Shown piece by piece: positions 37,163 to 64,000 of a DNA stretch of 64,000 nt. Position 1 is the stretch's first letter, and every line of letters begins with the position of its first letter. The notes under the pieces are model-generated. The model was not told the DNA's origin, made no database searches, and saw only the letters and a program-made list of their open reading frames with translations. Origin of the DNA: Escherichia phage V18; the sequence record NC_041937.1. One strand, written 5' to 3'. Position numbers and translations under genes: made by a program.

Positions 37163-37185
37163 TGATTATTTTAACAGGGTTTAAA

Positions 37186-37230
37186 TTTACTTTATTGATG
37201 GCCCTGGAGTCAAGGCCATCTAAAAATAAA
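37186..37230 (-). promoter_or_regulatory. repeated promoter/operator-like element, copy 1
   Basis: Inverted repeat GATGGCC…GGCCATC (37197-37203 / 37214-37220); minus-strand reading gives TTGACT-N18-TAAATT; upstream of 36845..37162. Confidence 0.4.
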
Positions 37231-37910
37231 TTTTACAGGCCTACAATCTCTTTATTCGTTTTACTGCTGCCTCAGCGCCTTGAGGGTAAAAATTATGGTA
37301 ACCAATCACGCGGGTAATACTGATCGCCGCCTGATGATCTTCATAATACCCCTTGAATATTTCTTGACCATCAACCAGCACAGCAATTTTTTCTTCTTTT
37401 TTGAAGTTAATAACGCGGATATTGTTGCTCATTTTGTTTCTCCTTTTGGAACTTTGTCTGTGTGGTGGGGAGTGTCTCCCCGTTGATTGTTATTATCCAT
37501 ATTCAGGACCGGATTGCAACACCCAGGGAGAAAAAATTTGAAAAGTTAGGCCCCAGGGATCGGGGCCGTTATCAGGCACGTACAGCGATAAAATACATCC
37601 CTACGCCTAACAATATTTCAAGGGCGATGATCTCCAGCCATACCATAACACGGCGCGCCTTATCGGTGCTGGGCTTATCCTTGGGTGTCATCGTCTCCCC
37701 CTTTCCTCCTGTTAGTAGTGACGTGGTTTGTAATGGTCCCCAGGAGTATTATCACCACGCACATTACAAGAAAAATTATCTCTGTCGTTGTTCGATCCAT
37801 TGTTATAAAACTCCTTAAGATCAGGCCTGAAAATAAAGCTTTCGTTATTGAATCCATCCCGCCAGGCGGCTGGCTTCAAATCTTCACTAAATGGATTAAT
37901 TAACGTGGTA

Positions 37911-39436: not shown

Positions 39437-40625
39437 GATGTTTTCTCCTATTTTCTTTGTTAGTGGCGGGAAGTTTTCCCGTTTACGTGTTTAAGTATAC
39501 TTATCAAGATTTACTTGTCAACACTATTTTTTAAATTATTGTGGCGCAAAATGTTTAAAATCTCCTCAACGTCATCAACACGGCGGCAATTTTTAAACGC
39601 TACCAATTGCCCCATGATTTTAATCACTGGGCGGCCTTGCCAGTGCCCCTGGAGAAAGCGCGCCTTGACTTTATCGGTGGAACTATCACGCCACCAAATA
39701 GCCTTGTTGTTGCAGTAGTAAAAATTATTCAGGACAACATCAACTTTATCAAAATTTTTTAATTTACGCATGGCGTTTACTCCTTTCTCTCTTTGATGTG
39801 GTTAGTATAGCTAACCTGTTGACGATGTCAAGGTTAAATAAAAAACTGTCAATGATATTTTTAACGCCATAAAACGGCCCTAAGCGATGTTTTCAGGTTA
39901 AAGGGGGGGCGATTGCATAGGTGGGGCCTTTTTGGCGCTTACAGGGCCAACCAGGGGCGCTATTCGTAGGATAGAAATAAAAAGCCCCGCACAATGGCGG
40001 GGCGTTGGTTGTTATTTGTCTTTATGGCGGTATCGTTCTGCCTGTCGTTCACGTTCCAAAAGTAGGCCGGGCAATTTACGATCATAATGATTGCGCCAGA
40101 TCTTCCCAAACCTTTTTGGCTTATTCAGTTTATTGTTACGCTGGCGGCGTTCTGGCAGCTCTTCGGAATCATGAGGGCGCTTTACAATTTTCTCGAAATT
40201 AATTTTCATATATTCCCCCCTTGCTAACTTCAATATTGGCCTGAATAGCCGATACGGCGCTTTATAACTTCCTGATCTGTGTGGTCATATCCCCAAAAGT
40301 CTACGATTTTTGCGCCTCCAGCCTTTAGGCGGTATAGTGTTTCTTGCATCTTGTAAGCTGGGATCGGTCGCGGTGTTACCTGGTCGCCTCTCTCATCCTT
40401 GTACTTGATAATGTAGTCTTCGTTGTCGTTGAATGCCCAAAATGGGTATTCTGTGAGCGCGTTGCTATCTTTTTCGTTTTTAGATTGGATCTTGTTTACA
40501 ATTAAAGCCGTAGCAATAGCGCCAATGATAAAACTAGCCCCGCTAATCATGTACTTTCTCCTTTCATGGTGTTAATAAATTATCTTTATAGATGGCCCTG
40601 CAACCAGGACCACCGAAAAAACAGC

Positions 40626-40871
40626 TTATTTGACGATACCGACAAAACAGATCCCGCCTTCCCCTATATAGGCAATATCGGTAATTTTATAATTTGTCAA
40701 GATCTGCTTATTTAGTTCATTAATAAAATCGGTCATTGCGTTGGTGTAGTTGTCTTCCGTGTCTAAGGCATAATCCCAGGTGTACACCTTTTTACGTCCG
40801 AAGCCTTTTACCATGATACGGGCGCTTTTGGTGTTGGTAGGGGCATAATATTTGGTGATTAGTGCTGCCAT
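40626..40871 (-). CDS. hypothetical protein
   Basis: 81 aa; same RBS/start context as 36327..36611 (ATAGGAGTTAAAAnCATGGC). Confidence 0.4.
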   Translation of the reverse strand: MAALITKYYAPTNTKSARIMVKGFGRKKVYTWDYALDTEDNYTNAMTDFINELNKQILTNYKITDIAYIGEGGICFVGIVK

Positions 40872-40912: not shown

Positions 40913-40962
40913 AGTTTACTTTATTGATGGCCCTGGTGTCAAGGCCATCTAAAAATAAGCTT
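40913..40962 (-). promoter_or_regulatory. repeated promoter/operator-like element, copy 2
   Basis: Near-identical 50 bp to 41533-41582; GATGGCC/GGCCATC inverted repeat bracketing a TTGACA on the minus strand. Confidence 0.4.
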
Positions 40963-41301
40963 ACTCGTTTTCTTCCAGCTCCGCAAGCTCTTCTTTTGCT
41001 TCTTCCAACCCTGTCTGTAATTCCTGGTATTCTTCATCGTCCTCAATATCCAGCTGTCGATGTAGTCGCTAAATCCGCAGCGGTAAGCGATAGGATCTAG
41101 CTCCTTGAGGATACGCGACGGAAGAAAAGAAATGTTTCCGATCATAATTTCGCCGTAGATCTCGTCTAACCATTCATCATAGTTTTCGTCGTACTTGTCC
41201 TCGTCGATTTCAAAGTTATCGATCTTATTCTCAAGGTCTGCGATCTGTTTTTTCAGCGCGGCGATCTGCATGGCTTTTTCTGCGGCGGTCATAGTAGTCA
41301 T
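40939..41301 (-). CDS. hypothetical coiled-coil/acidic protein (C-terminal part possibly out of frame)
   Basis: 120 aa; N-terminal KKQIADLENKIDNFEIDEDKYDENYDEW; leader hairpin GGGAAGTTTTCCCG at 41328-41341. Confidence 0.35.
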   Translation of the reverse strand: MTTMTAAEKAMQIAALKKQIADLENKIDNFEIDEDKYDENYDEWLDEIYGEIMIGNISFLPSRILKELDPIAYRCGFSDYIDSWILRTMKNTRNYRQGWKKQKKSLRSWKKTSKLIFRWP

Positions 41302-41532: not shown

Positions 41533-41582
41533 AGTTTACTTTATTGATGGCCCTGGTGTCAAGGCCATCTAAAAATAAGCTT
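41533..41582 (-). promoter_or_regulatory. repeated promoter/operator-like element, copy 3
   Basis: Inverted repeat GATGGCC 41546-41552 / GGCCATC 41563-41569; upstream of the 41381..41500 peptide ORF. Confidence 0.4.
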
Positions 41583-42024
41583 AGTAAATTTTCAGTACTT
41601 TACCGTCCAACCTGTCAAGCTGGATCTCGATAGCTGCAGAAAACCTATTGTACACCACGTCGCCCATAGAATCCAACCAGTCTATGACGTTATACACTTG
41701 CTCTTTGTTCTTGCAGGTCCGGATCCGTTTCATGATGTAAGCCGGATCAATATTGGTACTCTCGTTGGGGCCTTTACCACCACCTGGAATGGCTTTAAGG
41801 TGCCTTTTGCGTTCATCTCACGCGCTTTTGCGGCGCGGTTGTTATATGTTACACAACGGCGGCAAATGTTGATCAAATGCATGTCAATAATTTTTTCATC
41901 GTTTGCCAACTCGTTCATGATGCGGCGTACGTTCTTATTCATGATCTTTTTCCTTTGTGCTGGCGGGAAACATTCCCGCCTTTTGTGTCTAGTTTACTTA
42001 AATTTTGCAGCGTGTCAATGATTT

Positions 42025-43380: not shown

Positions 43381-43900
43381 TAATTAGCATGCTAATTACC
43401 TTCCGTAACAATTTCCTATAAAATAGTACCCCATAAAATATTCCCATATAGAAATTTTAAAAATCCATTTCTGAAAACGAAAAATCGATTTCGTTCCCAA
43501 AAATTTTAGACCTGGTGCTGGACCAATTTCAAGAAAATCCGATTCAGAAAACGAAAAACAGATCGAGTACCGAAAAATTTATCGAGAAAAATTTTCAGAA
43601 AATTCAATCTTTGAAACGAAAAACAGATCGAGTACTTGGAAAGCTGTGCCGCAACTTCAAGATAGTGGTTGGATTATTACCATAAAAGGTCAAGGGTAAG
43701 CGGAGGAAGTTCCCGTAGAAGGGTGTGAGCATGTGCGGGAAATCTGTAATGGTGATCTGGAATATGGTGCAAACGATAGGATGAGTGATTCATCTCGTCG
43801 TGCCTGCTCTGAAAAATCCATTTTAGTTTTCGATCCATTTTCTGATTTTCTAAGGATTTTAAAATATCCGGGCAGGTAAAATATCAAAAGGAGGAAATCC
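43381..43900. repeat. direct-repeat array and palindrome in non-coding DNA
   Basis: Perfect 16-bp palindrome AATTAGCATGCTAATT 43381-43396; GAAAACGAAAAA(C/T)(A/C)GAT(C/T)G units at 43472-43492, 43546-43569, 43612-43634; AAATCCATTTT recurring near 43460, 43802, 43883. Confidence 0.5.
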
Positions 43901-46107: not shown

Positions 46108-47221
46108 TTGGAAGGTAGAAATCTGTTACCTCATAGAATCCACAATCGTCGCACTCACCTTCTTCAAACTTGGCCTCAACCTTAATACCGAGGAAGGTAA
46201 AAAGTTTATGGATATCTTCAGTTTCGAACTCCCAGTGAATGTTGTTTTCCGCATCGGTATAGAACTGGATCAGCAGACCATTGTCCAGTTTACCAAAATA
46301 CTCTGTGAAGTAACTTCCTTCCCAGAAATCTTTATGACAAATAATATCCATGCGTTTACCCATAATAATGGTGTGAGCGTTTTGGGCATCGTCACGAATC
46401 AGTTTTGGCATTTCATAGCTCATCTTAGTTCTCCGGGTTCAACAGGTGGTGGCGCTACAGGAAGATCATAAAACATGGCTATCACAGTCTCTTACACAGG
46501 AATTGCTTCAAATAGACCGTTATCTATACCGTCCTTCAGGTAGAGGTTATATTCTATGTCGGTATCTGTATAAAGGGCAGCATCCAGCATTCTATCCGTG
46601 AGTCCATCCATCGGGGGGAGAAACCACCACCCACGCCAGTCAAAGTAACAGCCTGGTGCATCTTCTCTTACACGGATTCGATAAATCATGAGCAGTGGCC
46701 TCCTGTTAGTTATACATCCCAGTTTTCTTCGTTCATCACGTCCTCCCGTTCTATGAAGTTATAATTGCACACCTTTCAACCTGTGTCAACAGAAAACTTC
46801 AACAAATTCTTCCACAGTTTTAATGTCGTGGGAAAAAGGTTTACGGCTATAACGGGCAATAGCACTATCAACCACCGCCCGGTACTCCAAATCTTCAGAA
46901 TATTTCATGAAGCATTGTAGCGTCTCTGGACAGATAGCTAAATAGCTCCACCACCCCTCTTCAGATTGGTAGTCGAATCCCATACTCTCCAACCATGAAG
47001 CATATACGCCTGCACCCTCAAGCCAGTGAGTGTTTTCATCCAGGAACTTGTTAACAGACATGTGGGCTTCCAAGCATTTATCCAACTCTTTTCCGTTAAC
47101 CAGCCACGCACTGACCGTGGCGCATCCAAGGTCTACAGATTGAGTTGACAGGTTGTATTGGTCATAGTTCTCAGGCTTAACAATGATATCTTCTAATGTC
47201 ATTTTTCAGATCTCCTTATAC

Positions 47222-47250
47222 AAAAATGCCCCACCCTTTCGGGCAGGGCT
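47222..47250 (-). terminator. rho-independent terminator (minus strand)
   Basis: GCCCCACCCTTTCGGGCAGGGC hairpin 47228-47249 followed on the minus strand by a U-run; identical hairpin at 57908-57929. Confidence 0.45.
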
Positions 47251-47264
47251 ATGTCAGTTAGGTG

Positions 47265-47699
47265 CTAAAAGTATTCATAGAAGTATCCATCTGGAGCTGG
47301 AATTTTTTCATGAATGTAGTAACCAATATATATTCCGGTTTCTCTGCTACAAGAGTTGTGGGATACCCATTCTTTAAGAACGTTACCATTCATGTCCAAC
47401 CTCCTTACATTTTTGCACCGTCTACCGCTGGTGCTTCTATGCAACAGAATATCCTCCGTCTGCTTATCTTTATTTTCTCCCCAAGTCGTTAAACGGATAT
47501 TATCAAAAGAGTACCCTTTGAAATCATCTATCCTGTCACAAGAAGGCTTTTTCCTTTTGTCGTATCCGCTGGCTACCCACTGATCATACAACTCTTTGTA
47601 ACCGTTTAGGTATAGCCACTCCTTAAACTCTTTTTTGGTGTAAGTCGGAGGAGGGTGACCTCTTTGCTTGCTGTTGCACTTTTGAGCCTTGTACAACAC
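47265..47699 (-). CDS. hypothetical protein, weak HNH-like resemblance
   Basis: 144 aa; CDRIDDFKGYSFDNIRLTTWGEN loosely resembles the HNH_3 pattern H-IDGN…N-R—T-EN but lacks the first His. Confidence 0.25.
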   Translation of the reverse strand: MLYKAQKCNSKQRGHPPPTYTKKEFKEWLYLNGYKELYDQWVASGYDKRKKPSCDRIDDFKGYSFDNIRLTTWGENKDKQTEDILLHRSTSGRRCKNVRRLDMNGNVLKEWVSHNSCSRETGIYIGYYIHEKIPAPDGYFYEYF

Positions 47700-47809
47700 A
47701 CGTATTACACCTTTTTCTGAAGAGTCTTTAGCAAATTGGTCAGCCTCCCTGCTGGCCTTCTTGCAACACTCTTTGCACGTTGATTTGTTGCTGGTATAGA
47801 AGTCGGACC

Positions 47810-49036
47810 TTAGAAAGGGATCGAGTCATCGAACTCATACTGTGCTGGATTCTGATCCATTGGGTCATCTTCCTCATCATTTACAGGAGGAGCGTCTACA
47901 GTGTTTTGCTGTGGAGCTGCTTCCTGTTTGGCAGCTTGAGGTTCTTGATGGTCAGTGGACCCAGCACCGTTCTTGATCCAATCGTACAACGGCTCAGCCA
48001 GATTAGTCAAGACATCTTTTGCTTCTGCAGTAATTGCCGCTGCAAAATCATCAACTTTCGTTTTCTTGTCAATACGGCGACAAGCGTTCAACACCGCATT
48101 GCCGACACTGGCACCTACTTCATCTTCAGTTCGGTTGGTGGCTTGAGCATACTCTTTCTTAAGCTCAATGGTGACTACGTGCAGTGTTTTAGCCACGCCT
48201 AGTGGGTCGTCCACCTTAAACCCGCGATCCAGGATGATCTGCAACGCATTGATGCTATGTCCCGTCTCCACACCGATAGGGTCGTAAGAGGATTTACGCT
48301 TGCCACCAGAGCCTTGAGTGCCGTTCTCTGCCTTAGGAGGATAGGCCTTGAAACCACTGATAATGTTTCCGGTGTCTTTGTCAACAATGGCTGCAACACG
48401 ACCACCTACCACCAGGTCTTTAAGCTGCTCATCAGTGACAACCATAGCACCTTCGCCAATCTTGTGGTCATTAACAGTAACCACGTTGCCAACAATCTGA
48501 GTCACATCACCATAGATGCGTAAAACGTCCTGATTGGCATTCTGCTGAGGTTTCTGCTTCTGGCCTTGTGATTGTGCACCTTGTTGCTGTTTTTGCTGCT
48601 GAGTCGCTGCTGGAGCCTCTCCTGCACCCAGCTTAACCATCTTAGCCAGTGAGCCTTTGTAATAGGTCTTACCGTTATGCTCGTTTGCCTTCAAAGGGAT
48701 ATTTACGATCCATCCTGGCGTTACGGTTTCCCACTTGTCATCAATCTTAACAGAGACAGAGTCTTGATGACCCGGTTTAAGCAGTTTATCACCCATGCTG
48801 ATCCAGACTTCTTCACCACCTTGAAGCAGGTTATCAGAGGAATCCAGTTCAGAAATCAGTAAAGAGATGGTGTGGCTGGATTCAATTTTCTTACCTTGCC
48901 ACACAGTGGTTTTAATACCTGTTGTAGGATCAGTACCTTTGATAGGCTTGATGCTGACACGTTTAATCATGCCGTGAGCCAGTAAAACAGTTTCACGCGG
49001 ATTCATCGGGTTAGCGAATTGTTGAATAACGCTCAT
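47810..49036 (-). CDS. ssb: single-stranded DNA-binding protein
   Basis: 408 aa; Gln/Gly-rich linker; C-terminal acidic tail …EFDDSIPF matching the SSB C-terminal D-D-D-I-P-F type motif. Confidence 0.6.
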   Translation of the reverse strand: MSVIQQFANPMNPRETVLLAHGMIKRVSIKPIKGTDPTTGIKTTVWQGKKIESSHTISLLISELDSSDNLLQGGEEVWISMGDKLLKPGHQDSVSVKIDDKWETVTPGWIVNIPLKANEHNGKTYYKGSLAKMVKLGAGEAPAATQQQKQQQGAQSQGQKQKPQQNANQDVLRIYGDVTQIVGNVVTVNDHKIGEGAMVVTDEQLKDLVVGGRVAAIVDKDTGNIISGFKAYPPKAENGTQGSGGKRKSSYDPIGVETGHSINALQIILDRGFKVDDPLGVAKTLHVVTIELKKEYAQATNRTEDEVGASVGNAVLNACRRIDKKTKVDDFAAAITAEAKDVLTNLAEPLYDWIKNGAGSTDHQEPQAAKQEAAPQQNTVDAPPVNDEEDDPMDQNPAQYEFDDSIPF

Positions 49037-50427
49037 TATTTGTCTCCTTGTTCTTCGTTAGTGTTTGCCGTGTGTGCAAACCCTGCCTGAATTAATTTGT
49101 CCTGAACTTGAGCCAACAGGCCCATTGCAAAACTTGTGGTCCCAGAGAGAGCCATCAGCATATCTCGTTGTTGAGCTACCCAACCTAAGGCATAGTCCAA
49201 ACGACGATATTTTTCTTCTTCGCGCAGAGCCTGAAATAATTGTTCAGCCTCCGGTTGTTGTGTGAGCTCCTGAAGTCTTCCCATGAAAGAAGAAAGCACT
49301 AGCAAAAGAGACACTTGATCTTTACTTAACCCTAAGAAAAATTCTTGAGGTTGTTCTTGCTCGTTCATTGCAACCGACGTTTGATCGTTCATTTGTTCCA
49401 TTATGGAATCTCCGATTTTATTTGAACAACATAGAAGGAGACACTATTTTAGCATCCCCTTCTGCAAATTACAATAGGTATTTGTTAGCCAATCACTTCA
49501 AAAGTTCCCCAATTCCCGTCCAGCAGGCAGGTGATCGGATCCCCATCGTCGTCAAAGATTTCAAAGTTTTCAGCATCCAGGATGTGACCCTCGAACACGA
49601 TACTTTCGTCTCCACCACCAGAAATAACAGCGTATTCCTTACCTTGAGTCAAGTTTTGACACCCTTTGCCACCAAAACCTACTTCAACACAACGTACTTT
49701 CTGTCCTGCGCGAGCAACTGCTTCAGTCATCTTAAGGTCTCCTGATATTAATCGTCAAGTTCAAAATAGATTTTAACAGCTTCATCAAAGATTGGAATCC
49801 CGATGTTGTTGATAAGCTGCCAAACTACCATATCTTTACCTGGATCTGGGAGAATGTCAACCTTTCTCCATGCGCTGTATACCCAGTTCGGACCGCCTTC
49901 TGCACTAACTGGCAGATTTTCACCAGCTTCTTGTAGATACTTATACAGCAAAAGATATTCTGGATACTCTAGAACACTGTCCTCTGTAGTATATAGCAGT
50001 TCACGGTATACTTTTAAGAACCCTGCTGGGGTAATGTTTTCAGTCTTCATTTGCCGCTTCTCCTGCATTCATCAGGTCTGCCATAGCGTCACCCACGAAG
50101 AGGACAACCACATCGTTGACAGCGTCAGCATCATCTTTGTTGACGTTGCTGAATTTAGGACACACAGCAATGATCATATAGACACCGTTACCAACCTGAA
50201 CTGTCCGTGTGGTGCACATCATGGCGGTATTTGTGCCTTCTTTGAAGGCGAAGCTTGAAGACGCTCCTCTAAAGTGTTACCGGTAGATTTCAGAAGCGCC
50301 AGCTCGTCCAAGGCATAGATGATATCTCCGGAAGTTAGTGTTGCCTTGCCATCAGACACCATAATCACTCCATCAGCACCGTCAAGCTTAGAGGCTTCAA
50401 AGATATCAATATCCCAAATATTTTTCA

Positions 50428-50760
50428 TTACGCTTCCTCGTCGTCTAAGTAATCATCAAGAGAGGTGAAGATTTCACCGAAGTATTCTAAGATTTCTAGC
50501 TCACGTGTGGTGCAGCAAACATAATCTCCTTGGTCGTCCTTAATAGTGGCCTCTTTACCCAGAACATCTACTTCAAATTCATCGTTCAGCAGGACGGCCC
50601 CTGTGTAAACTTTGTCAGCTGTGCAGTCCCGAAAAGCAGAGTCCTTTTCCAGATAGTCTGGCTTAACCTTGGCTTTAATTCGTTGATATTGTTTGGTCAT
50701 TGCTGTGGTCTCCTTTCGTTTTGATAGGGCCATTATATTAGGCCCCATCACTGTTGTCAA
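50428..50760 (-). CDS. small acidic protein, tandem paralog 1
   Basis: 110 aa; KPDYLEKDSAFRDCTADKVYTGA… vs KPECVANDRAFKDCTVGAIYEA… in 50764..51018. Confidence 0.4.
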   Translation of the reverse strand: MTTVMGPNIMALSKRKETTAMTKQYQRIKAKVKPDYLEKDSAFRDCTADKVYTGAVLLNDEFEVDVLGKEATIKDDQGDYVCCTTRELEILEYFGEIFTSLDDYLDDEEA

Positions 50761-50763
50761 GTA

Positions 50764-51018
50764 TTAATGTTCAGGTTTTACAAAAACTACTTCATTAACA
50801 GTGCACCAGACAGAGTCTCCTTCGTCATCTTTAAAGGTAAGGCACTGTGCTGAGTTTTCCAGCTCATCAATCTCTTCTTGTGATAAAGGGGCCCCTTCTT
50901 CCAGAAGGGCTTTTACCAGAGGGTTCTCACAAAACTCTGCTTCATAAATTGCACCGACTGTGCAATCTTTAAAAGCTCGGTCATTTGCAACGCATTCTGG
51001 CTTCAAAGTAATTTTCAT
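50764..51018 (-). CDS. small acidic protein, tandem paralog 2
   Basis: 84 aa; see 50428..50760. Confidence 0.4.
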   Translation of the reverse strand: MKITLKPECVANDRAFKDCTVGAIYEAEFCENPLVKALLEEGAPLSQEEIDELENSAQCLTFKDDEGDSVWCTVNEVVFVKPEH

Positions 51019-52225
51019 CTTGGCAGTCTCCTTAGTTATTTAAAAATCAACGCTCTGTTTGTGTGAAGCATCTTATATCTAATCTTACTTCTTGTCAATG
51101 ACTATTTTCAATCAGCCACACAGGGTCGAGGTAGATTTGTTGGCGTGTTGCCCAATGACAAACTTCATTGTACATCTGCACCTCTTTGTCTGTCAATTCA
51201 CGAATAGGCTCATCTATACCCTCATTTTTGTGGTAATCCCAGTCGGCATCGATTTCCCACAGCCATGACTTGTTGTCACCACGCTTACGCACACAGAAGT
51301 CACCAGGACGGCCTGCCAGTGCATTTAAGAACTCGTTCTCTGCTCGCTCTTGAAGAATGCTAAGGAGCAAAACGTTGGAGCATGACCGTAAAATATGCTT
51401 CAGCTCACAATCATCAATCTCAACTTCAATACGTTGTTTGACTGTGTGGGTACCTTTTACTAACATCCTACCTCCTCTAAACGAACTCTGCAAGGGTTGT
51501 GTTGTTCACTGCACCACAGTAAATGGAGTATCCCAGCCCATTAGAGTGCAGAAACCACGGCGTGCCGAAATTATCTTTCACGTAGACATCGCCGTTGCTT
51601 GTAAAGGGCCAATATTCTTCACCAAGGGTGAAATACCTACTCATACCCTCAGCCAGATACTTTACTTTCATAGGTCCTCTTCAACAGCTACAAACTTGGC
51701 AAGCAGGGTGGTTCCGTAGATATGATACTCACCGTTTGCCAGATGGGAGATAAACCAGGCAATCCCTTCCTCGTCTTTAATCATCTTGTTTGCACGATTT
51801 TTATCGTAATAAACCTCGTAGGTCTTTCCTTCTTTAAAGAAGGACAGGTCTGTCATCTTTTCTTCTACAAAAGTAGCTTTAACCAAAGTTGTCATTGATC
51901 GGTCTCCTTCTTGTTAAGTCTGAATACTGCAATAATAGCATTCCCAAGGTGCAGTGTCAAATCATTTCCAAGATACCACAGCATCCCACGGTCATCTTTA
52001 ATGAAAGGGTAACAATCTGGTGCCTTCCAGACATTGTACACTTTGCCAACCTGAAAGAAATCAGGCCCTGTTGGGATTTTAGTTCCAGGCCACACTTGAG
52101 ATACCTGAACACATTCCACCTGCATAATAACAGGGATAGTCATGGATGTAAATGTTTTTGTTGGTTCTACTACCATAAAAGTCTCCTCTTTGCTCAACAA
52201 CACTTCCATGTGTTGATAGTTTACA

Positions 52226-55003
52226 TTAGTGACAATCACCCCAATTACGACCACACAAGTATTCACCTGTGATCTGGAACGGGACTCCCATCATTTTAGA
52301 AGCTTGCCAGAAGCAATGCACCACCATTTCACCCACAGGGCTCCAGATAAGCTCAAGCTTTCCGTCATCGTTCAGGATAGGATCGTACACCGTGTTTCCG
52401 TCTCTGTCAACCACTTCGTTTCCGTCCTCATCCTTGCGTGCCTTTTTGTACTTATGACCGTCGAACACATGAAGTTTGGCCTCCTGCTCTGCCTTAAATG
52501 CTTCCAGTTCTTCGATTGTGTCGAAGGTGTACACAGTCTTATACTTCGGTGTGTCAGGGACTTGAAGCTGATATTCGTCATGGTAATAGATAATACGACG
52601 AACACCTTCATCGTACCACCCACGCTTCACCATTTGGTGGTGCATGAGTATCCCAACTAAGTCACACAGCGATGCACCACCATTCTGTTGGTATGCATTA
52701 AGTAAAGAGTGTTTAGATCGGGTCCAGATAGCATGACCATCAAAAGAGTAGATAAACTTCTTACCCGTTGCTTCCCAGAATTTCTCCAGATCTTCTTTAC
52801 GCCCCTTAAGACCGGGGTTGGCATCCCAAAGTGCATCGATTACCCTTTGTCCCAACTCTGGAGAGATGTCCAGCATATCTGCAACTTTATCTTTTTGTGC
52901 CCCATACATAACCCCATACGTGATAGGTTTACCGTCGTTACGAGACACCTCTCTGCCTGCTACTTTTGTATATGCTTCAGCATTGTTTTGGTGTGCGTCC
53001 CCGTTACTTACAACATCATAATACAATCCGTTGTCGAACTCAAAGGCACCCCAAGCCCCGATAAGCTGCTCTAAGTTGGACCCGTCAATACCGATCTCAA
53101 AGTATCCTGGAGGAACACCCCACAGACTACGCATCTCTTTACCCATGACCACTTTAGGAGATGGTTTAGGCATGTTTGCACAAATACTGTGTTTCTGTCG
53201 GGAAGTGTTTGTTAACCCAGAGCTTTTAGCAGGAAGCTTATGGTCAATCTTCAAACGTGGATGATTAAGAAGACCAGTATCAACCTTATCCTCCTTGATT
53301 GGATCAAGTACCGATCTGCGGTTTCGCAATGATAACCACAAGACGATATCTTTAGCCATCTCTCCGTTCAATTTTTCAAGATTCGGGCATAGGTGTCCAA
53401 ACGTATCTTTCAGTTGCGGAGAAGTAATAAGTGCCCTAGCTTTTCTACGTATTTTCCCGAATACTTCCTTTTTAATCCTTTCGGAGTTAGGAAAGCTTCG
53501 GAACTTGTGCACGGTTGTCTGGAACTTAGCATCAGTTTTGTTCCAGAAGTTGATAATCAGGTCACAATACTCTGACTCTAAAAGCTCGTCCATATATGCA
53601 TATACTCGTGCATCAACATCTGCATCAGGTAGAGCTTTCTTCTTGCTGTCTTTAGTTACATCCTTAGTTCTCCACATTGTCGGAAGCCAACCAGCACTGA
53701 TCAGGTATCGCTTAATGTCGTCCTGGTTGCTGATTTTCATAGGTATCTTGCAGTCCGGCATTCGCTTCTGCTGTAGATCACTTATTGCCTGATCCATTAG
53801 CTCTTTAGGTAAAGGTTGTGGTGTGGAGGTGCCCTTAATATAGCCTCTCAAGAAATCAGCCATCTTATCGGGGTCTTTGCAGCCCATCTCTTCACACCAT
53901 TTTATCCCCATCTTACTGACATCTCCTGTAGAGGTAAATGCTCGCTTAGGCGGGGCTTTGAACTCTAAAGCGCTCATATCTACAGGATAGCCAAGCTTAT
54001 CTTTTAACCATTTCCAACCATTATTGGAGATTGTCCCATCTTGGTTAAACGGCTTTTCAGGGAACTTGGGCCGCTGAGACATTGACAGCTCTTTTAAAGG
54101 TAGTTGCGGTTCAACACGATCAGCGATTTCTTTCATCCACGCATCGCAACGGTCACGTAAAGCAATAGCTCCATCTATGTCAAAATACACACCCTGACGG
54201 GCCTGCAGCTCCATCAGGAAGTGCTGCAGCATGCCTCGGCGTAATGCGTTCTTCCAGGTGATCTTCTTGAACCCTTTCGGCTTCTCTTTGGCAGGATCGT
54301 ACATAAAGTTCTGCATGTCAGATTTGCCGTAGAATACACCTTTTGATTCCGCTACCAGCTCTTTCCAGAGCAGCTCCTGGATGATAACGTCCTCGAATAC
54401 ACGATCCACATACTTCCACAACGGAAGATCGCGCCAGTCATCAATTTGAACTTTCTGGTTACCAAGGGCGTAGCCCCATGCCATAAGGCCGTGAGGACCA
54501 ACAGGTTGCATTTTCTTAGTAACCGGGTTGAATACAGCGTCCGGACAACCTTTTGGTAAAGGGCGATCAGGCCACAAGATTCGGCTCATAGCCAACGTAT
54601 CAAACAGGTTAACCTGGTGGTCGTTGATAGTCCCCATGCATTTAGGATCACGGAACATATCAAAATGAATACCGGATAATCTTTCCATCAGCATAAAGTC
54701 ATAACTGTAGCAGTTATGGCAGTTCAAAGCTGTTGGTGACCAGTCGGAATTGCCTGTAAGCCAACCTTCCAACTCCGAAAAATCTGCTATGCGAACTTCA
54801 AAATCTTTATAAAGAGTTTTCTTTGCCAGAATAAAGTTCTTAGCCTTTTCTATATCCTCCTCGGAGTAGTGTGTGCGGCTATTTAGAGGAAGGAACAGCA
54901 TAAAACGGTTCTTATTCAGCTCTTTAAACAGACCGCAGTGATAATAAAGATCTGGGTCTTCCAGCAAACCGGATGACTCAAAATCGAACGACCACATACT
55001 CAT
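52226..55003 (-). CDS. DNA polymerase, family A, with N-terminal 3'-5' exonuclease domain
   Basis: 925 aa; N-terminal FDFESSGL (Exo I); polymerase motif B …KPITYGVMYGAQ and motif C YYHDEYQLQV. Confidence 0.85.
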   Translation of the reverse strand: MSMWSFDFESSGLLEDPDLYYHCGLFKELNKNRFMLFLPLNSRTHYSEEDIEKAKNFILAKKTLYKDFEVRIADFSELEGWLTGNSDWSPTALNCHNCYSYDFMLMERLSGIHFDMFRDPKCMGTINDHQVNLFDTLAMSRILWPDRPLPKGCPDAVFNPVTKKMQPVGPHGLMAWGYALGNQKVQIDDWRDLPLWKYVDRVFEDVIIQELLWKELVAESKGVFYGKSDMQNFMYDPAKEKPKGFKKITWKNALRRGMLQHFLMELQARQGVYFDIDGAIALRDRCDAWMKEIADRVEPQLPLKELSMSQRPKFPEKPFNQDGTISNNGWKWLKDKLGYPVDMSALEFKAPPKRAFTSTGDVSKMGIKWCEEMGCKDPDKMADFLRGYIKGTSTPQPLPKELMDQAISDLQQKRMPDCKIPMKISNQDDIKRYLISAGWLPTMWRTKDVTKDSKKKALPDADVDARVYAYMDELLESEYCDLIINFWNKTDAKFQTTVHKFRSFPNSERIKKEVFGKIRRKARALITSPQLKDTFGHLCPNLEKLNGEMAKDIVLWLSLRNRRSVLDPIKEDKVDTGLLNHPRLKIDHKLPAKSSGLTNTSRQKHSICANMPKPSPKVVMGKEMRSLWGVPPGYFEIGIDGSNLEQLIGAWGAFEFDNGLYYDVVSNGDAHQNNAEAYTKVAGREVSRNDGKPITYGVMYGAQKDKVADMLDISPELGQRVIDALWDANPGLKGRKEDLEKFWEATGKKFIYSFDGHAIWTRSKHSLLNAYQQNGGASLCDLVGILMHHQMVKRGWYDEGVRRIIYYHDEYQLQVPDTPKYKTVYTFDTIEELEAFKAEQEAKLHVFDGHKYKKARKDEDGNEVVDRDGNTVYDPILNDDGKLELIWSPVGEMVVHCFWQASKMMGVPFQITGEYLCGRNWGDCH

Positions 55004-55061
55004 ATACAGTTCTCCTTAAAGGGGAGGCGGTTGTACTACCCCTCCCACTCTTTGTTAAACA

Positions 55062-57055
55062 TTAAAAAGGCGTTTCATCATCCTCAAAACCAGGGACCGG
55101 GTCAGAGGATGGATCATCGTACTGGAGGTCTTCCTGCGTGTCAACAGGCTTAACAGTAGGAGTTACAACCTTATCAGCCACAACCTTGCCCATAGGTGTT
55201 TCTACAACTGCATGCTCCTGATCCTCAAACATAGCCTGAGGTCTCCAAACAACCTCCCCGCCTTCTCCGTCTGTAAACATTTGCATTTCTTTGTCCCAGT
55301 ACCAATTACTGGCATCATGGAACTTACCTGTGTGCGGGTCCATAACCAAAGTGTCAGCAATACCTAGAGTTTTTGCTGGACGGTTTTTAAGACCTACCAG
55401 ACGGACACGTCCACGAGAACGATCCACCATTTCTTCGGCCTCGACACCTATGACTACCCAACTCAACTGTTCAAGCCCAGCCGATCCTCGCAAATTCTCT
55501 TTTCGCACAGGATACCAGAAAGGTAACGGGTTACCATCCTTGTCCTTAGGAGGCACAATCTCTGTACGTTTGAGGTGAGCGATCACCAAGATAAACACAT
55601 TAAACTGCTTACAAAACGCAGCCAGTTGGGTCATAGCCATGTCCAGTTCTTTTCGCTCATCCTTAACATTAAGCCCTGAAATTACCATGGACAGGTGATC
55701 CAGCACAATATAACGACAATGGTACAGGCAAACCATTTGCTTAAGCTTGGTAATCAACTCGTCCACCGGAATAGACCCGAAATGTTTGAACACTTTGATT
55801 TTTCCAGCTTTTGCCCATGATTGGTGAATCTCTGCGTGTTCTTGATCAGTTAAAAACTGGCTAGGATCTTCAACAAACTCTTTAACATCAAACCCTAACT
55901 GGTTTGCATACAAGGAGTTAATTGCTTCCTCTGGGTCCTCCTCAAGATGGATCATGCATAGACGATCATCCTCTTCATAGTCATCAGCCTTCGGGCATGT
56001 CGGGTCCATTAGGTATCTTGCAATACAGTGTTCCAGTTTTTTAGCCACGGTTGTTTTACCGCCCCCTGATGGCCCTGTAAGCATTACGAGTGTCCCTTTG
56101 TGCAAGCCTTTTAGCATTTTTTGCAGTTTTGGGAACTCTGCGCTGATATCTACCCCGTTGGAAGTCTTTTTCCGCAAAGACTCGATAGAGAAGTCTTCTA
56201 AATCCGACACAGCATCAGGCACATATTTAACAGGATGCCGGAACATGTTGACAATATCTTCCAGCTTTTTAGCCTTCAGCATGTCACGGATATCTTTTAC
56301 ACCGTCAGGATCGTTTACCTCACCGGGGTATTCTACGTGGTAAACGTTATCAGCCATCAAAAATGCTGCAATATTGTGCGTGGCCTCGACACCTTTAATG
56401 ACGTGTTTTTGCTTCTCTACCTCGTTAGCTGCATCGTTATCCATTGCCAGCACAACTGTTCCATAGCTACGGATAAACTTCTCATTGTTTGCAAAAGTAT
56501 CTACTGCGTTTGCACATCCACAGTTAATTCCAACAAAAGGTAGGCAAGGTTTTCCTGCCAGATCACCACCGTTGATAACTGCGTCGATCCCGTCCTGGAC
56601 CTCTTTAGCCCACTGCTTCACCTTTGCCGGGGCTTTAGCGTTGGTGAGAATCCCTTTTACTTGTATCTGATATGCAGCCTGCCATGCTGCAATAACATCA
56701 CCTTCTCCCTCACAAACGTTAATCTGCTTACGGTTGTTGGAAGATGCACACAGCTTTTGACCAAACATCTGGGAGTTGGCCTTTACTATGCTACTACAGA
56801 CCAGTGCCCTTTCTGCTCTTTCGGCTTAGACCAGTCACGCTTTTTGAAACCAGACAGATTTCCGTAGCGGTCGTAATATGGGAAATATGTTGCAGTGACT
56901 GTCACACCGTCTTCTTGGGACAATGCTGATCGCACACCAAAATATTGTGCAGCCATCAGACCGATATTTTGTTGTGGGACAGGGACAATTTTAGTATTTT
57001 CTAAAACAGTCTCTACAGTTTCAACCTCTTTTTCATCACGATAGTCTCGTTTCAT
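55062..57055 (-). CDS. primase-helicase (TOPRIM primase domain + DnaB-family helicase), N-terminal part in a different frame
   Basis: ORF 55062..56768: TOPRIM EGEGD and LAMDNDAAN; Walker A LTGPSGGGKTT; Walker B-like FILVIAHL. A separate 89-aa ORF 56786..57055 immediately upstream ends 18 nt before it in another frame; I did not identify a primase motif in it, so the join is positional. Confidence 0.65.
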
Positions 57056-57128
57056 ACTACCCCCACTTTTGTATCTTGTTGCAACTGGGTTAGGTTCTCC
57101 ATAGCGGCTATATGCAGAGGATATAAAC

Positions 57129-57914
57129 TTATTCCCCTCTCCTTACTACAGGCTCGTTTGCTAAGAATACAGCTTTTGCCCAGCCACGTGGTGTGAGGCT
57201 TCGAATCATCTTCGTTCTTGCACTCTTTCCACCAAGCTTGGCGTGTTGCATGGAATACCCGCTAACCACGTCAACTATTTGCGGGACAGGTTTTGTGTCC
57301 GGGATTATAAATCCATTACCTATCCAGCCGCAAGTTATTTTTGGATAGGCATCACGTGGAGCTATAAATTCAGGAAACCATGGGTTTACATCATCCTCAG
57401 GTAAATACCCGCCATAGTCAGAAGGATGAAAACGGTAATCAGGTTTGCGCCACAGTGTGGACATAACACCAACAGGATTCTCTACATGCCACGGGCAATC
57501 GTAAATCTCTCCCAGCTCTTCCGCAACCCGAGCATCCTTTACAGCATTAATTTGGATCATGGGGTCCTTAGCCAGCTTTTTCTTAAAATGTGCAGCACCC
57601 GATACCGCTAAATGCGTGCACGGAGGAAATGCAAGAATAAAGTCTGGAGCTGGATACATGCAAAAAGTTTCCTGAGGGAACCACGGGTCAATCCAATAGT
57701 CAACATAGTGAATGTTGGGATGATCGGTTATCACCTCTGCATAACTGCCGTGATCAGCACCTTCTGCGTTAAAGCACAGGCACAGATATCCAGCTTTTGC
57801 CCAGTCAATGACTGCACCACCAGACCCGTCAAATAGACTCCACACAACACCTTTGTGGTAGTGTTCTTTGTAGATAAATTTCAATTTGCTGTCTCCTAAT
57901 GCAAAAAGCCCCAC
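57129..57914 (-). CDS. C5-cytosine DNA methyltransferase-like protein
   Basis: 261 aa; LFDGSGG (motif I F.G.GG), FPPCTH (motif IV PC), HVENPVG (motif VI ENV); shorter than typical Dcm-type enzymes. Confidence 0.35.
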   Translation of the reverse strand: MGLFALGDSKLKFIYKEHYHKGVVWSLFDGSGGAVIDWAKAGYLCLCFNAEGADHGSYAEVITDHPNIHYVDYWIDPWFPQETFCMYPAPDFILAFPPCTHLAVSGAAHFKKKLAKDPMIQINAVKDARVAEELGEIYDCPWHVENPVGVMSTLWRKPDYRFHPSDYGGYLPEDDVNPWFPEFIAPRDAYPKITCGWIGNGFIIPDTKPVPQIVDVVSGYSMQHAKLGGKSARTKMIRSLTPRGWAKAVFLANEPVVRRGE

Positions 57915-57930
57915 CCTTTCGGGCAGGGCC
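57902..57930 (-). terminator. rho-independent terminator (minus strand), identical to 47228-47249
   Basis: GCCCCACCCTTTCGGGCAGGGC at 57908-57929 followed by a U-run on the minus strand. Confidence 0.45.
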
Positions 57931-57935
57931 TAGTG

Positions 57936-58418
57936 TTAAACCCGGATACCTATTGTATACTCGGTGGATACCAATGTCAAATCTAAATTTAAAATTTCTT
58001 GCATCTCATAATATGCGTCCAGGGTGAGATACATTTCCCCATCCTTTTCTACATACTTGTCCAAGTGCTTGAGGCATTTCGGATAACTATCAAGTGCAGC
58101 TTTCAGACACTCAAATTCTGTGCTGTTGATGAATCCTTCCATCTTAGCTACCCGTTCTGGAGTAACGATAGCACTGTAGTGAGATTTAGCTTCCTGAATG
58201 CAATGGGTCCAAGCATCAACTTTCTCTTCAAAAAGTCCGAAGAACTTCTTTTTGGTGAGCTTCAGATTCTTTAAGTGCTTAAGCACTCGGTTGCCGATCA
58301 CAGCTACATCACGAAACTTAAGGATCACTTTGTCGATATCCTCGCGGCCTATTTTCACAAAGCAAGCCTCGCACATTTCAGGAGTGGCATAGCCTACTTT
58401 CCACATAAAATCTGACAT
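57936..58418 (-). CDS. hypothetical protein
   Basis: 160-aa ORF between two methyltransferase-like genes. Confidence 0.35.
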   Translation of the reverse strand: MSDFMWKVGYATPEMCEACFVKIGREDIDKVILKFRDVAVIGNRVLKHLKNLKLTKKKFFGLFEEKVDAWTHCIQEAKSHYSAIVTPERVAKMEGFINSTEFECLKAALDSYPKCLKHLDKYVEKDGEMYLTLDAYYEMQEILNLDLTLVSTEYTIGIRV

Positions 58419-63531: not shown

Positions 63532-64000
63532 AAGCTAGATAAAAATGTACAATTGAGAGCATTTTTTTCGATGATTTCACACTCAGAAGGTACTGACAGG
63601 TATGGTGGCGAAGATGCTTCGTACCACATCCTTGTTGGTGGAAAATACATAGAGGATCTCAGCAGGCATCCCGGTATTTATGTCAAATTAAGACCGGGCC
63701 TTACCTCTTCAGCATTTGGCAGATACCAAATTCTGGAGAAATACGCTAAGCATTACATGAAGCAGCTTGGCTTAAGAGATTTTGGTCCGGCAAGTCAAGA
63801 TGCCATAGCAAAACAGTTGATCCGCGAATGTAAAGCCCTTGATGACATTTATGAAGGAAGGATCCGTTCAGCTATCTATAAATGCCGTAGCCGTTGGGCA
63901 AGTTTCCCACCACCACCGGGGGCTGGTAAACTGTATGATCAGCGTGTAGAAAACATAGAGAAGATGCTGGACGTCTTCCGAAAAGCCGGAGGCACAAGAC
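63532..64000 (+). CDS. second copy of the endolysin coding sequence (partial; runs off window end)
   Basis: 63532-63996 matches 144-608 by eye; lacks the ATG (CGA at 63529-63531); in-frame GTG at 63511 or TTG at 63460 upstream; diverges at 63997-63998. Confidence 0.45.

Follow-up and report, generated by a model that had tools for sequence, protein, structure and literature searches.

Why do two sites 10.7 kb apart in an rV5-like coliphage carry the same 22-bp hairpin, and what would it do there? The window analysed here (the whole stretch of DNA, 64,000 nucleotides) belongs to a Vequintavirus (rV5-like coliphage). A search of the window for GCCCCACCCTTTCGGGCAGGGC gave exact matches at 47228-47249 and 57908-57929 only, both on the plus strand, and no further copies with up to 3 mismatches; 100 dinucleotide shuffles gave 0 matches, the chance expectation being none. 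The most probable answer (roughly 0.8), judged from sequence comparison, is that the two sites are paralogous terminators or leaky attenuators, derived from one old copying of a cassette of ~22-39 nt, most likely from site B to site A, and kept alike by purifying selection. The features concerned are as follows:

47211-47216, minus strand: Shine-Dalgarno AGGAGA of the 138-aa ORF (46786-47202), read from the sequence
47222-47226, minus strand: U-run A (UUUUU), 3' of hairpin A, with a single A between stem and U-run
47228-47249, minus strand: hairpin A (rV5 t213 equivalent), RNA GCCCUGCCC-GAAA-GGGUGGGGC with a 9-bp stem (from search, fold and rV5 Table S4)
47265-57884, minus strand: gene block bracketed by the hairpins, delimited by its ORFs
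57892-57897, minus strand: Shine-Dalgarno AGGAGA of the Dcm-like methyltransferase gene, read from the sequence
57903-57907, minus strand: U-run B (UUUUU), abutting hairpin B on its 3' side
57906-57931, minus strand: hairpin B (rV5 t232 equivalent), the 22-nt core 57908-57929 plus two pairs, giving 11 bp
57952-57980, minus strand: sigma70-type promoter TTGACA-17-TACAAT (rV5 'P231'), within the 3' end of ORF 57936-58418

The genes of this region lie on the minus strand throughout, co-oriented with both hairpins, and the order on that strand at both sites is hairpin, UUUUU, Shine-Dalgarno sequence and then the next gene. The bracketed block encodes a methyltransferase, a primase/helicase, a DNA polymerase (52226-55003), a 408-aa protein and ~15 small ORFs, and also holds a remnant of an endonuclease VII-like gene; the Dcm-like methyltransferase starts with TTG at 57884-57882 (GTG in one relative). 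Searches of five flanking proteins returned no Pfam matches. A putative 465-bp endolysin repeat is present at the edge of the window. An earlier, sequence-only reading had described an identical hairpin at both sites, each followed on the minus strand by a U-run and each just downstream of a gene stop, and all three observations hold: the exact 22-mer search recovers the pair, the tails read AUUUUUG at A and UUUUUG at B, and the hairpins start 15 nt past the TAG of ORF 47265-47699 (A) and 6 nt past the TAA of ORF 57936-58418 (B).

Folding is strand-specific at both sites. Hairpin A, whose stem contains tandem U.G/G.U wobbles and whose loop is a GNRA tetraloop, has a minimum free energy of -19.1 kcal/mol on the minus strand (z = -3.3) against -12.8 kcal/mol on the plus strand, and the corresponding values for hairpin B are -21.8 (z = -2.0) and -14.2 kcal/mol. 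The plus-strand fold is the weaker at both sites and has an internal loop, because the two wobble pairs turn into C.A mismatches. In a terminator scan requiring at least 5 T in 8 for the U-tract, both sites pass and are the top two terminator-like sites of the 44-62 kb region. A complete relative of 135,883 bp contains 33 strong terminator-like hairpins, exactly two of which are this hairpin; degenerate copies (up to 6 edits, or half-sites) are absent from that genome beyond the two, and the nearest other terminator, of the rV5 t052 type, has the 3' arm alone in common with the A/B hairpin.

Canonical E. coli-type intrinsic terminators have a G+C-rich stem, a stable tetraloop and a 3' U-tract, and lie in intergenic, post-stop positions co-oriented with the genes. 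Sites A and B resemble them in stem, tetraloop, U-tract, post-stop position and orientation, and their pairing has been kept in evolution; they differ in the short U-tract (5 U), in the Shine-Dalgarno sequence within ~5 nt and in the downstream genes, which have no promoter of their own. Both sites are accordingly textbook cases of predicted intrinsic terminators, with a good fold on the minus strand only. The earlier designation of the hairpins as terminators is supported by the strand-specific fold, the U-run, the post-stop position, the pairing-preserving substitutions described below and a previous prediction in rV5. Table S4 of the rV5 genome paper lists predicted rho-independent terminators t213 and t232 at these sites (Kropinski et al. 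2013, Virol J 10:76; PMC3606486), with sequences GCCCTGCCCGAAAGGGTGGGGCATTTTT and GGCCCTGCCCGAAAGGGTGGGGCTTTTT on the minus strand, each at -22.3 kcal/mol. Going by that table, t213 and t232 are orthologous to sites A and B, identical in sequence and without material difference, the window and rV5 being strains of one genus; the portion of the paper's text available to us contains no comment on the identity of t213 and t232 to each other or on their origin (PMC3606486). The Murica, Gotham and Alma records label hairpin B a terminator, and the EdH4 record also annotates terminators here. The identical terminator pair is therefore real, explained and ordinary, both sites being already published as predicted terminators.

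The sequence-only reading took exact reuse of the hairpin to suggest duplication of, or recombination between, the two sites, and proposed aligning their flanks. That alignment, now run, shows the exact identity ending at the 22-mer with zero bases of extension on either side, and the ungapped flanks at a random level of 23-32% identity over 50-500 nt. With one indel allowed, the 3' sides have TTTTTG.AT.AGGAGA in common (14/16 positions, covering the U-run and the Shine-Dalgarno sequence), so that the total shared unit is hairpin, U-run and Shine-Dalgarno, ~39 nt. A segmental duplication, or exchange between A and B by active homologous recombination or by gene conversion, would account for the 22/22 identity, the direct orientation and the like U-run and Shine-Dalgarno sequence downstream. 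It is at odds with the random flanks, which argue against segmental duplication, and with the unrelated proteins flanking A and B. Gene order and copy number (two) are constant in every genome compared, with an A-B spacing of 10,134-12,080 bp; the differences in spacing are insertions inside the interval, namely the endonuclease VII-like gene and, in some genomes, genes for HNH-type endonucleases within the DNA polymerase gene or close to it. Deletion of the interval by recombination would also cost the DNA polymerase and primase/helicase genes.

Comparison of both sites in 13 genus members bears on the same explanation. Site B is invariant in 13/13 genomes, and site A shows four single-base substitutions, each independent of the others (C9>U, G6>A, U17>C and G18>A), which occur in Murica, ECP2303, C9 and 12A_SA_NWU. 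Each of these keeps or improves its pair and none is mirrored at B in the same genome, which rules out concerted evolution of the two sites and argues against ongoing gene conversion or recombination. Segmental duplication or active recombination is thus extremely improbable, and already largely refuted. Of the two processes originally suggested, recombination between the sites has left no trace in their independent evolution, in gene order or in spacing, and duplication survives in reduced form, as the copying of a single cassette of ~22-39 nt before the radiation of the genus, with neither flank homology nor a segmental duplication.

Purifying selection on the fold is consistent with the substitution pattern. 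Across 8 distinct variants all stem cells are paired (72/72), a pattern that gives modest covariation support, the changes being one-sided only and the shuffle control not significant; the loop is GNRA in all (GAAA or GGAA). GenBank-wide, a 43-mer at site B is 100% identical in 107/117 records, and site A is more variable. Contigs of an uncultured sister lineage (IMG/VR sample 3300045988) retain B as GCCCUGCCC-G(A/G)AA-GGGCGGGGU, together with P231 and its spacing, though the surrounding ORF diverges. The same contigs lack the 138-aa gene and carry AAGGCCACC-UUCG-GGUGGCCUU, a different terminator, after the p408 orthologue, at A's position. The retention of a B variant alongside another terminator at the A position suggests that A most likely arose long ago as a short copy of B, and it is from this distribution that we infer the direction and time of the copying event.

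The sequence-only reading had also held that its suggestion would fall if the identity were confined to a short GC-rich hairpin of a kind common in the host. The identity is indeed limited to such a hairpin, but E. coli does not commonly carry it: it is absent from all of 5,426 E. coli genomes, and the idea of a common host hairpin was rejected. A 16-fold degenerate pattern of the hairpin, searched in 185,579 species, gave 21 scattered single matches in unrelated, mostly high-GC bacteria.

Similar hairpins do occur in other phages, and convergence or independent acquisition keeps some plausibility on that account. Tequatrovirus vb_GEC_SH_GT has GCCCUGACC-GAAA-GGUUGGGGC-UUUUUG, different by one compensatory pair and with the tandem wobble and UUUUUG tail of the Vequintavirus pair; Mosigvirus JS09 has CATA...TTTTTGTATAA edges in common with site A; and another 8 unrelated IMG/VR contigs carry the GCCCUGNCC-GAAA-GGNUGGGGC design, in most cases as a terminator. 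The T-even hairpins (SH_GT and the JS09 group) lie 3' of a tRNA-like region and have the same arms and GAAA loop as A and B, in an unrelated genomic context with unrelated neighbouring genes; the likeness has a blastn E of ~1e-3 to 5e-3, at which homology as against convergence is unproven. A and B might on these grounds have arisen separately, by convergence or by horizontal acquisition of a 'popular' phage terminator design. This we consider unlikely, since the exact C7-G16 version is confined to Vequintavirus, none of the other ~31 terminators in the genome resembles A or B, and the neighbouring genes differ from those at the T-even loci. Both copies moreover have the sub-optimal tandem wobble, later 'repaired' in several lineages, and a sub-optimal feature common to both favours descent over optimisation. 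The idea that the gene downstream of site A travels with a T-even-type terminator was rejected, as no protein similarity was seen. The hairpin was also sought 5' of methylase homologues in the more distant phages Certrevirus CR8, Mydovirus Seu621, Phapecoctavirus phiWec186 and Krischvirus JSE, where the upstream gap by annotated coordinates is 0-41 nt, too short for a cassette of hairpin, U-run and Shine-Dalgarno sequence; direct reading of the sequence upstream of the JSE methylase showed no hairpin.

The copying of a small cassette from B to A thus remains our preferred account of the pair's origin, and its function would be that of incomplete termination. The gap between terminator A and the 138-aa ORF is too small for a promoter, and the genes after A and B lack a promoter past the hairpin, which means that complete termination is not possible; partial termination or attenuation within polycistronic early transcripts is the likelier role of A and B. 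At B, the conserved promoter P231 lies upstream of the hairpin at a distance of 22 nt, an arrangement that makes site B probably a leaky terminator or attenuator. No promoter was found upstream of site A. We infer actual termination and its leakiness at both sites from these arrangements; a literature search found no 3'-end mapping of Vequintavirus transcripts.

The same arrangement could be read differently, with the hairpin as a sequence-specific cis-regulatory RNA (an antitermination site of nut/boxB type, or an attenuator switch that times the replication operon) read by a phage or host factor; on this view both sites would need the same sequence. Hairpin B follows a near-consensus sigma70 promoter closely enough that every P231 transcript has it in its leader; the sister lineage keeps the promoter, the hairpin and the distance between them, the GNRA loop is invariant in type, and both downstream genes rely on read-through. 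However, a lambda-type nut site comprises a boxA and a GNRA-like hairpin past an early promoter, and here neither site has a boxA-like element within 120 nt and the promoter is present at B only. Rfam gave 0 matches at the gathering threshold across the whole window, stem changes are tolerated if pairing stays, as would be expected of an ordinary terminator, each genome has only two copies, and a U-run straight after the stem typifies terminators, not nut sites. Recognition of this kind is quite improbable. A speculative and very improbable variant treats the pair as matched RNAs, P231 transcripts having the hairpin in their leader and the same hairpin as their end ~10.7 kb on, with a factor reading the sequence. 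If this were true, the factor, dedicated to that sequence, would set the timing of read-through into the replication genes and past them, or stabilise the message, and the identity of the pair would be maintained by recognition as well as folding.

Repeated stem-loop cassettes provide a further comparison. Promoter-early stem-loop (PeSL) cassettes of T4-type phages are units of ~100 bp with -35 and -10 boxes around a stem-loop, present in many copies flanking ORFans, and they mediate indels and mini-circles (Arbiol et al. 2010, PMC2839356; Comeau et al. 2014, PMC4122927). In the JSE PeSLs, the two boxes around the stem-loop are seen directly in the sequence. The A/B cassette is like them in being a short repeated stem-loop with a Shine-Dalgarno sequence, reused between genes at more than one place in a large virulent coliphage, and the rV5-like early region has genes in common with RB49-type phages. 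In contrast to PeSLs, the A/B unit is 22-39 nt long, occurs in two copies per 136-kb genome and brackets core replication genes; site A has no promoter, and the promoter at site B lies entirely 5' of the stem-loop. The hairpins are not end points of indels: the endonuclease VII-like gene is present or absent among relatives, and the DNA 5 to ~20 nt upstream of hairpin A is kept either way, placing the end of that indel away from the hairpin. PeSL membership was rejected, as neither a ~100-bp promoter composite nor many ORFan-flanking copies with indel ends are found.

Under the preferred reading, a single copying event in the Vequintavirus stem lineage would have carried the hairpin, U-run and Shine-Dalgarno sequence, most likely from B to A, after which purifying selection for RNA pairing would have held the two sites alike. 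Site B would end the upstream transcription unit and also sit in the leader of transcripts starting at P231, and site A would end the methylase / primase-helicase / DNA polymerase block. Both would serve minus-strand early transcription through a 9-11 bp G+C-rich stem, a GAAA loop and UUUUU.

For rV5-like therapeutic and biocontrol phages, the pair would mark two transcription-unit boundaries around the replication genes, with little weight beyond annotation. Exact terminator reuse here would represent an old micro-duplication under structural selection, not a sign of recent rearrangement. From the promoter-then-terminator layout at B, expression of the replication genes is predicted to be attenuated and to depend on read-through, and the same hairpin design in T-even and other phages hints at very small regulatory cassettes moving among coliphages.

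Exact copies of the 22-mer GCCCCACCCTTTCGGGCAGGGC lie at 47228-47249 (site A) and 57908-57929 (site B), as described in the sequence-only reading, and no third copy is present in the whole window at up to 3 mismatches; in 100 dinucleotide-preserving shuffles there were no matches. The window derives from an rV5-like E. coli myovirus (Vequintavirus, ∼136 kb), and over 46-59 kb it matches >100 GenBank genomes at 91-97% identity. The genes of this stretch are all on the minus strand, and transcription therefore runs from B (57.9 kb) toward A (47.2 kb). From the gene order between the two sites, the hairpins thus bracket a block of replication genes:

57980-57952, minus strand: near-consensus sigma70 promoter TTGACA-17-TACAAT (rV5 "P231"), in the 3' end of ORF 57936-58418
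57908-57929, minus strand: site B hairpin, 6 nt past the TAA of ORF 57936-58418, followed by UUUUUG and AGGAGA
57884 (TTG start), minus strand: Dcm-like methyltransferase gene, downstream of hairpin B
Next after the methyltransferase gene, minus strand: primase/helicase gene
52226-55003, minus strand: DNA polymerase gene, after the primase/helicase gene
After the DNA polymerase gene, minus strand: ∼15 small ORFs, then the gene for a 408-aa protein (p408), then an endonuclease VII-like gene
47228-47249, minus strand: site A hairpin, 15 nt past the TAG of the endonuclease VII-like gene, followed by AUUUUUG and AGGAGA
47202 (ATG), minus strand: 138-aa ORF, downstream of hairpin A

The gene stop just upstream of each copy and the minus-strand U-run after it, both proposed earlier, are borne out by these positions. 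In the minus-strand RNA, GCCCUGCCC-GAAA-GGGUGGGGC, a GNRA tetraloop caps a stem of 9 bp (11 bp at site B) that includes tandem U.G/G.U wobbles; the folding energies are -19.1 (A) and -21.8 (B) kcal/mol. The plus-strand fold is weaker (-12.8 and -14.2 kcal/mol, with an internal loop) because the wobbles turn into C.A mismatches, and a U-run follows the stem on the minus strand only. In a consensus scan the two sites are the top terminator-like sites of 44-62 kb, which, with the strand-specific fold and U-run, supports the terminator reading; Rfam gave no matches in the whole window. As judged from sequence, the pair fits intrinsic terminators in stem-loop, U-tract, position after a stop codon and retained base pairing. 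Termination at A and B is still a prediction, since a literature search found no transcript-end mapping for Vequintavirus. The pair has been published before as predicted terminators: Table S4 of the 2013 rV5 genome paper (PMC3606486) lists both as rho-independent, t213 (GCCCTGCCCGAAAGGGTGGGGCATTTTT) and t232 (GGCCCTGCCCGAAAGGGTGGGGCTTTTT), each at -22.3 kcal/mol, and sites A and B are their respective orthologues. Terminators are also annotated in GenBank, for site B in the Murica, Gotham and Alma records and for site A in EdH4.

The exact identity of the two sites stops at the 22-mer, with no further base on either side, and alignment of the flanks revealed no extended identity (23-32% ungapped over 50-500 nt, as for random sequence). 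With one indel allowed, TTTTTG.AT.AGGAGA (the U-run and Shine-Dalgarno sequence, SD) on the 3' side of the coding strand is also common to both, and the common unit is therefore ∼22-39 nt. The suggested duplication or recombination is thus upheld only in the sense of an old micro-duplication of a terminator cassette, the flanks being random and the copies evolving independently.

This independence is seen in 13 members of the genus, picked to span 91-99% identity, from which both sites were taken. Site B is unchanged in 13/13, while at site A four single substitutions have arisen independently: C9>U in Murica (C-G to U.G), G6>A in ECP2303 (G.U to A-U), U17>C in phage C9 (G.U to G-C) and G18>A in 12A_SA_NWU (U.G to U-A). 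All four keep or better the pairing of the minus-strand RNA, and site B shows no counterpart to any of them, pointing to independent evolution under structural selection without gene conversion between A and B. Of 117 GenBank records, 107 match the site B 43-mer at 100% identity, and site A is more variable. A formal count over 8 distinct homologous variants found 72/72 cells paired and no double compensatory changes; 4 of the 9 stem pairs vary, on one side only, and the shuffle control was not significant for these 8 variants. The covariation is therefore consistent with the structure but modest as support.

There is likewise no sign of recombination between A and B: gene order is the same and the hairpin is present twice in every genome compared, and the A-B distance (10,134-12,080 bp) varies by insertions within the interval, namely the endonuclease VII-like gene and, in some genomes, HNH-type endonuclease genes within or close to that of the DNA polymerase. 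The DNA 5 to ∼20 nt upstream of hairpin A is kept with or without the endonuclease VII-like gene, so the hairpin is not where this indel ends. The gene itself (homing-endonuclease-type, 47265-47843) is missing from Murica, FV3, ECP2303 and S127 BCL3, and in the window it looks damaged: compared with bov10K2, 41 bp are deleted at ∼47806, and the longest ORF is 144 aa versus 192 aa in phage nom. Separately, at least 16 GenBank "Campylobacter phage" records (MG0656xx) share 93-97% identity with E. coli rV5-like phages across the 13 kb of the 46-59 kb stretch; one, fetched, is flagged UNVERIFIED with C. jejuni as host, and these are probably mislabelled or contaminant genomes.

A short GC-rich hairpin common in the host would also give such confined identity. 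The identity is indeed short, but 5,426 complete E. coli genomes yielded no exact copy of the hairpin and three weak partial matches only. A 16-fold degenerate version gave, among 185,579 species, 21 scattered single matches, in bacteria that are unrelated and mostly high-GC. In the complete relative bov10K2 (135,883 bp), just two of the 33 strong terminator-like hairpins are copies of it, and the nearest of the rest has only the 3' arm in common; in IMG/VR, only two contigs contain the exact 22-mer, each of them twice. The hairpin is common neither in the host nor in the phage genome.

Short-query blastn located similar hairpins in T-even phages, in unannotated intergenic DNA just past tRNA-like sequence (loci L047 1501-1537, L048 1501-1538 and L049 1501-1528, from the Mosigvirus JS09 group and Tequatrovirus vb_GEC_SH_GT). 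That of vb_GEC_SH_GT, GCCCUGACC-GAAA-GGUUGGGGC-UUUUUG, is a single compensatory pair apart from the rV5 hairpin and has the same tandem wobble; ∼50 Mosigvirus genomes of the JS09 group have GCCCCUUCC-GAAA-GGUUGGGGC, with CATA...TTTTTGTATAA edges in common with site A. The design GCCCUGNCC-GAAA-GGNUGGGGC is present in 8 more unrelated IMG/VR contigs, with the N-N pair complementary in 8/8 and T-runs after most copies. By its sequence pattern, the hairpin is a recurrent phage terminator design. Tiny cassettes may have passed between phages, or the design may have arisen by convergence; neighbouring genes are not in common between the rV5-like sites and the similar hairpins.

Two other identities were rejected for A and B. 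The promoter-early stem-loops (PeSLs) of T4-type phages are ∼100 bp, have numerous copies around ORFans and bring about indels (PMC2839356, PMC4122927), with the stem-loop between -35 and -10, as read directly in JSE. A nut-like site was rejected since no boxA-like element lies within 120 nt of either site. Reminiscent of PeSLs as a repeated intergenic regulatory cassette are four ∼51-nt repeats (73-100% identical; 37184-37234, 40578-40628, 40913-40963 and 41533-41583) among small minus-strand ORFs, each of which reads on the minus strand as a hairpin GATGGCC..TTGACA..GGCCATC between A/T runs, with the -35-like TTGACA in the loop. Three spaced 47-nt direct repeats at 43460-43645 (62-100% identical, AAAATCC.ATT...GAAAACGAAAAA..., start-to-start spacing 74 and 65 nt) might, as guesses, be iterons at an origin or a regulatory array. 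A direct repeat of 465 bp, identical in both copies, lies at 144-608, as codons 2-156 of the endolysin (GH104) ORF 141-620, and at 63532-63996, where it breaks abruptly into the rIIA/rIIB region, 4 bases short of the window end. In relatives the sequence is single, at the endolysin locus only, and the rII/endolysin junction is absent from GenBank phage records and IMG/VR contigs alike; the repeat could be a real insertion/duplication or an assembly mis-join.

The origin of the pair is illuminated by an uncultured sister lineage of Vequintavirus, comprising four IMG/VR contigs (L008-L011, 118-141 kb, sample 3300045988) with DNA polymerase 72-75% identical in amino acids to that of the window and no close GenBank isolate (best DNA matches Vequintavirus, ∼70%). 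Its site B, GCCCUGCCC-G(A/G)AA-GGGCGGGGU, has two stem changes that keep pairing and a loop that is still GNRA. After the p408 orthologue it has another terminator, AAGGCCACC-UUCG-GGUGGCCUU, then TTGACA, and the 138-aa gene is missing. Site A agrees with the Vequintavirus form of B, not the sister-lineage form. The simplest history would have site B as the source of a short cassette copied to A in the stem lineage of Vequintavirus. The sub-optimal tandem wobble common to both copies, later "repaired" in several lineages, argues for descent rather than convergence as the probable source of their likeness. In CR8, Seu621, phiWec186 and JSE the gap upstream of the methylase gene is ≤41 nt, too short for the hairpin-U-run-SD cassette, and in JSE this sequence, read directly, has no hairpin.

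P231 lies 22 nt upstream of hairpin B, with an AT-rich block upstream (57952-58010, minus strand). In the sister lineage the P231 hexamers, the AT-rich block and hairpin B are all kept in nucleotide sequence, while the remainder of ORF 57936-58418 falls to 44% amino-acid identity. The leader of the replication genes, as read from these motifs, has a promoter-then-terminator order, so that P231 transcripts would need to read through B for replication-gene expression. The 138-aa gene past hairpin A likewise lacks its own promoter. We infer that A and B may act as partial terminators or attenuators inside polycistronic early transcripts, a predicted role that the short 5-U tract fits.
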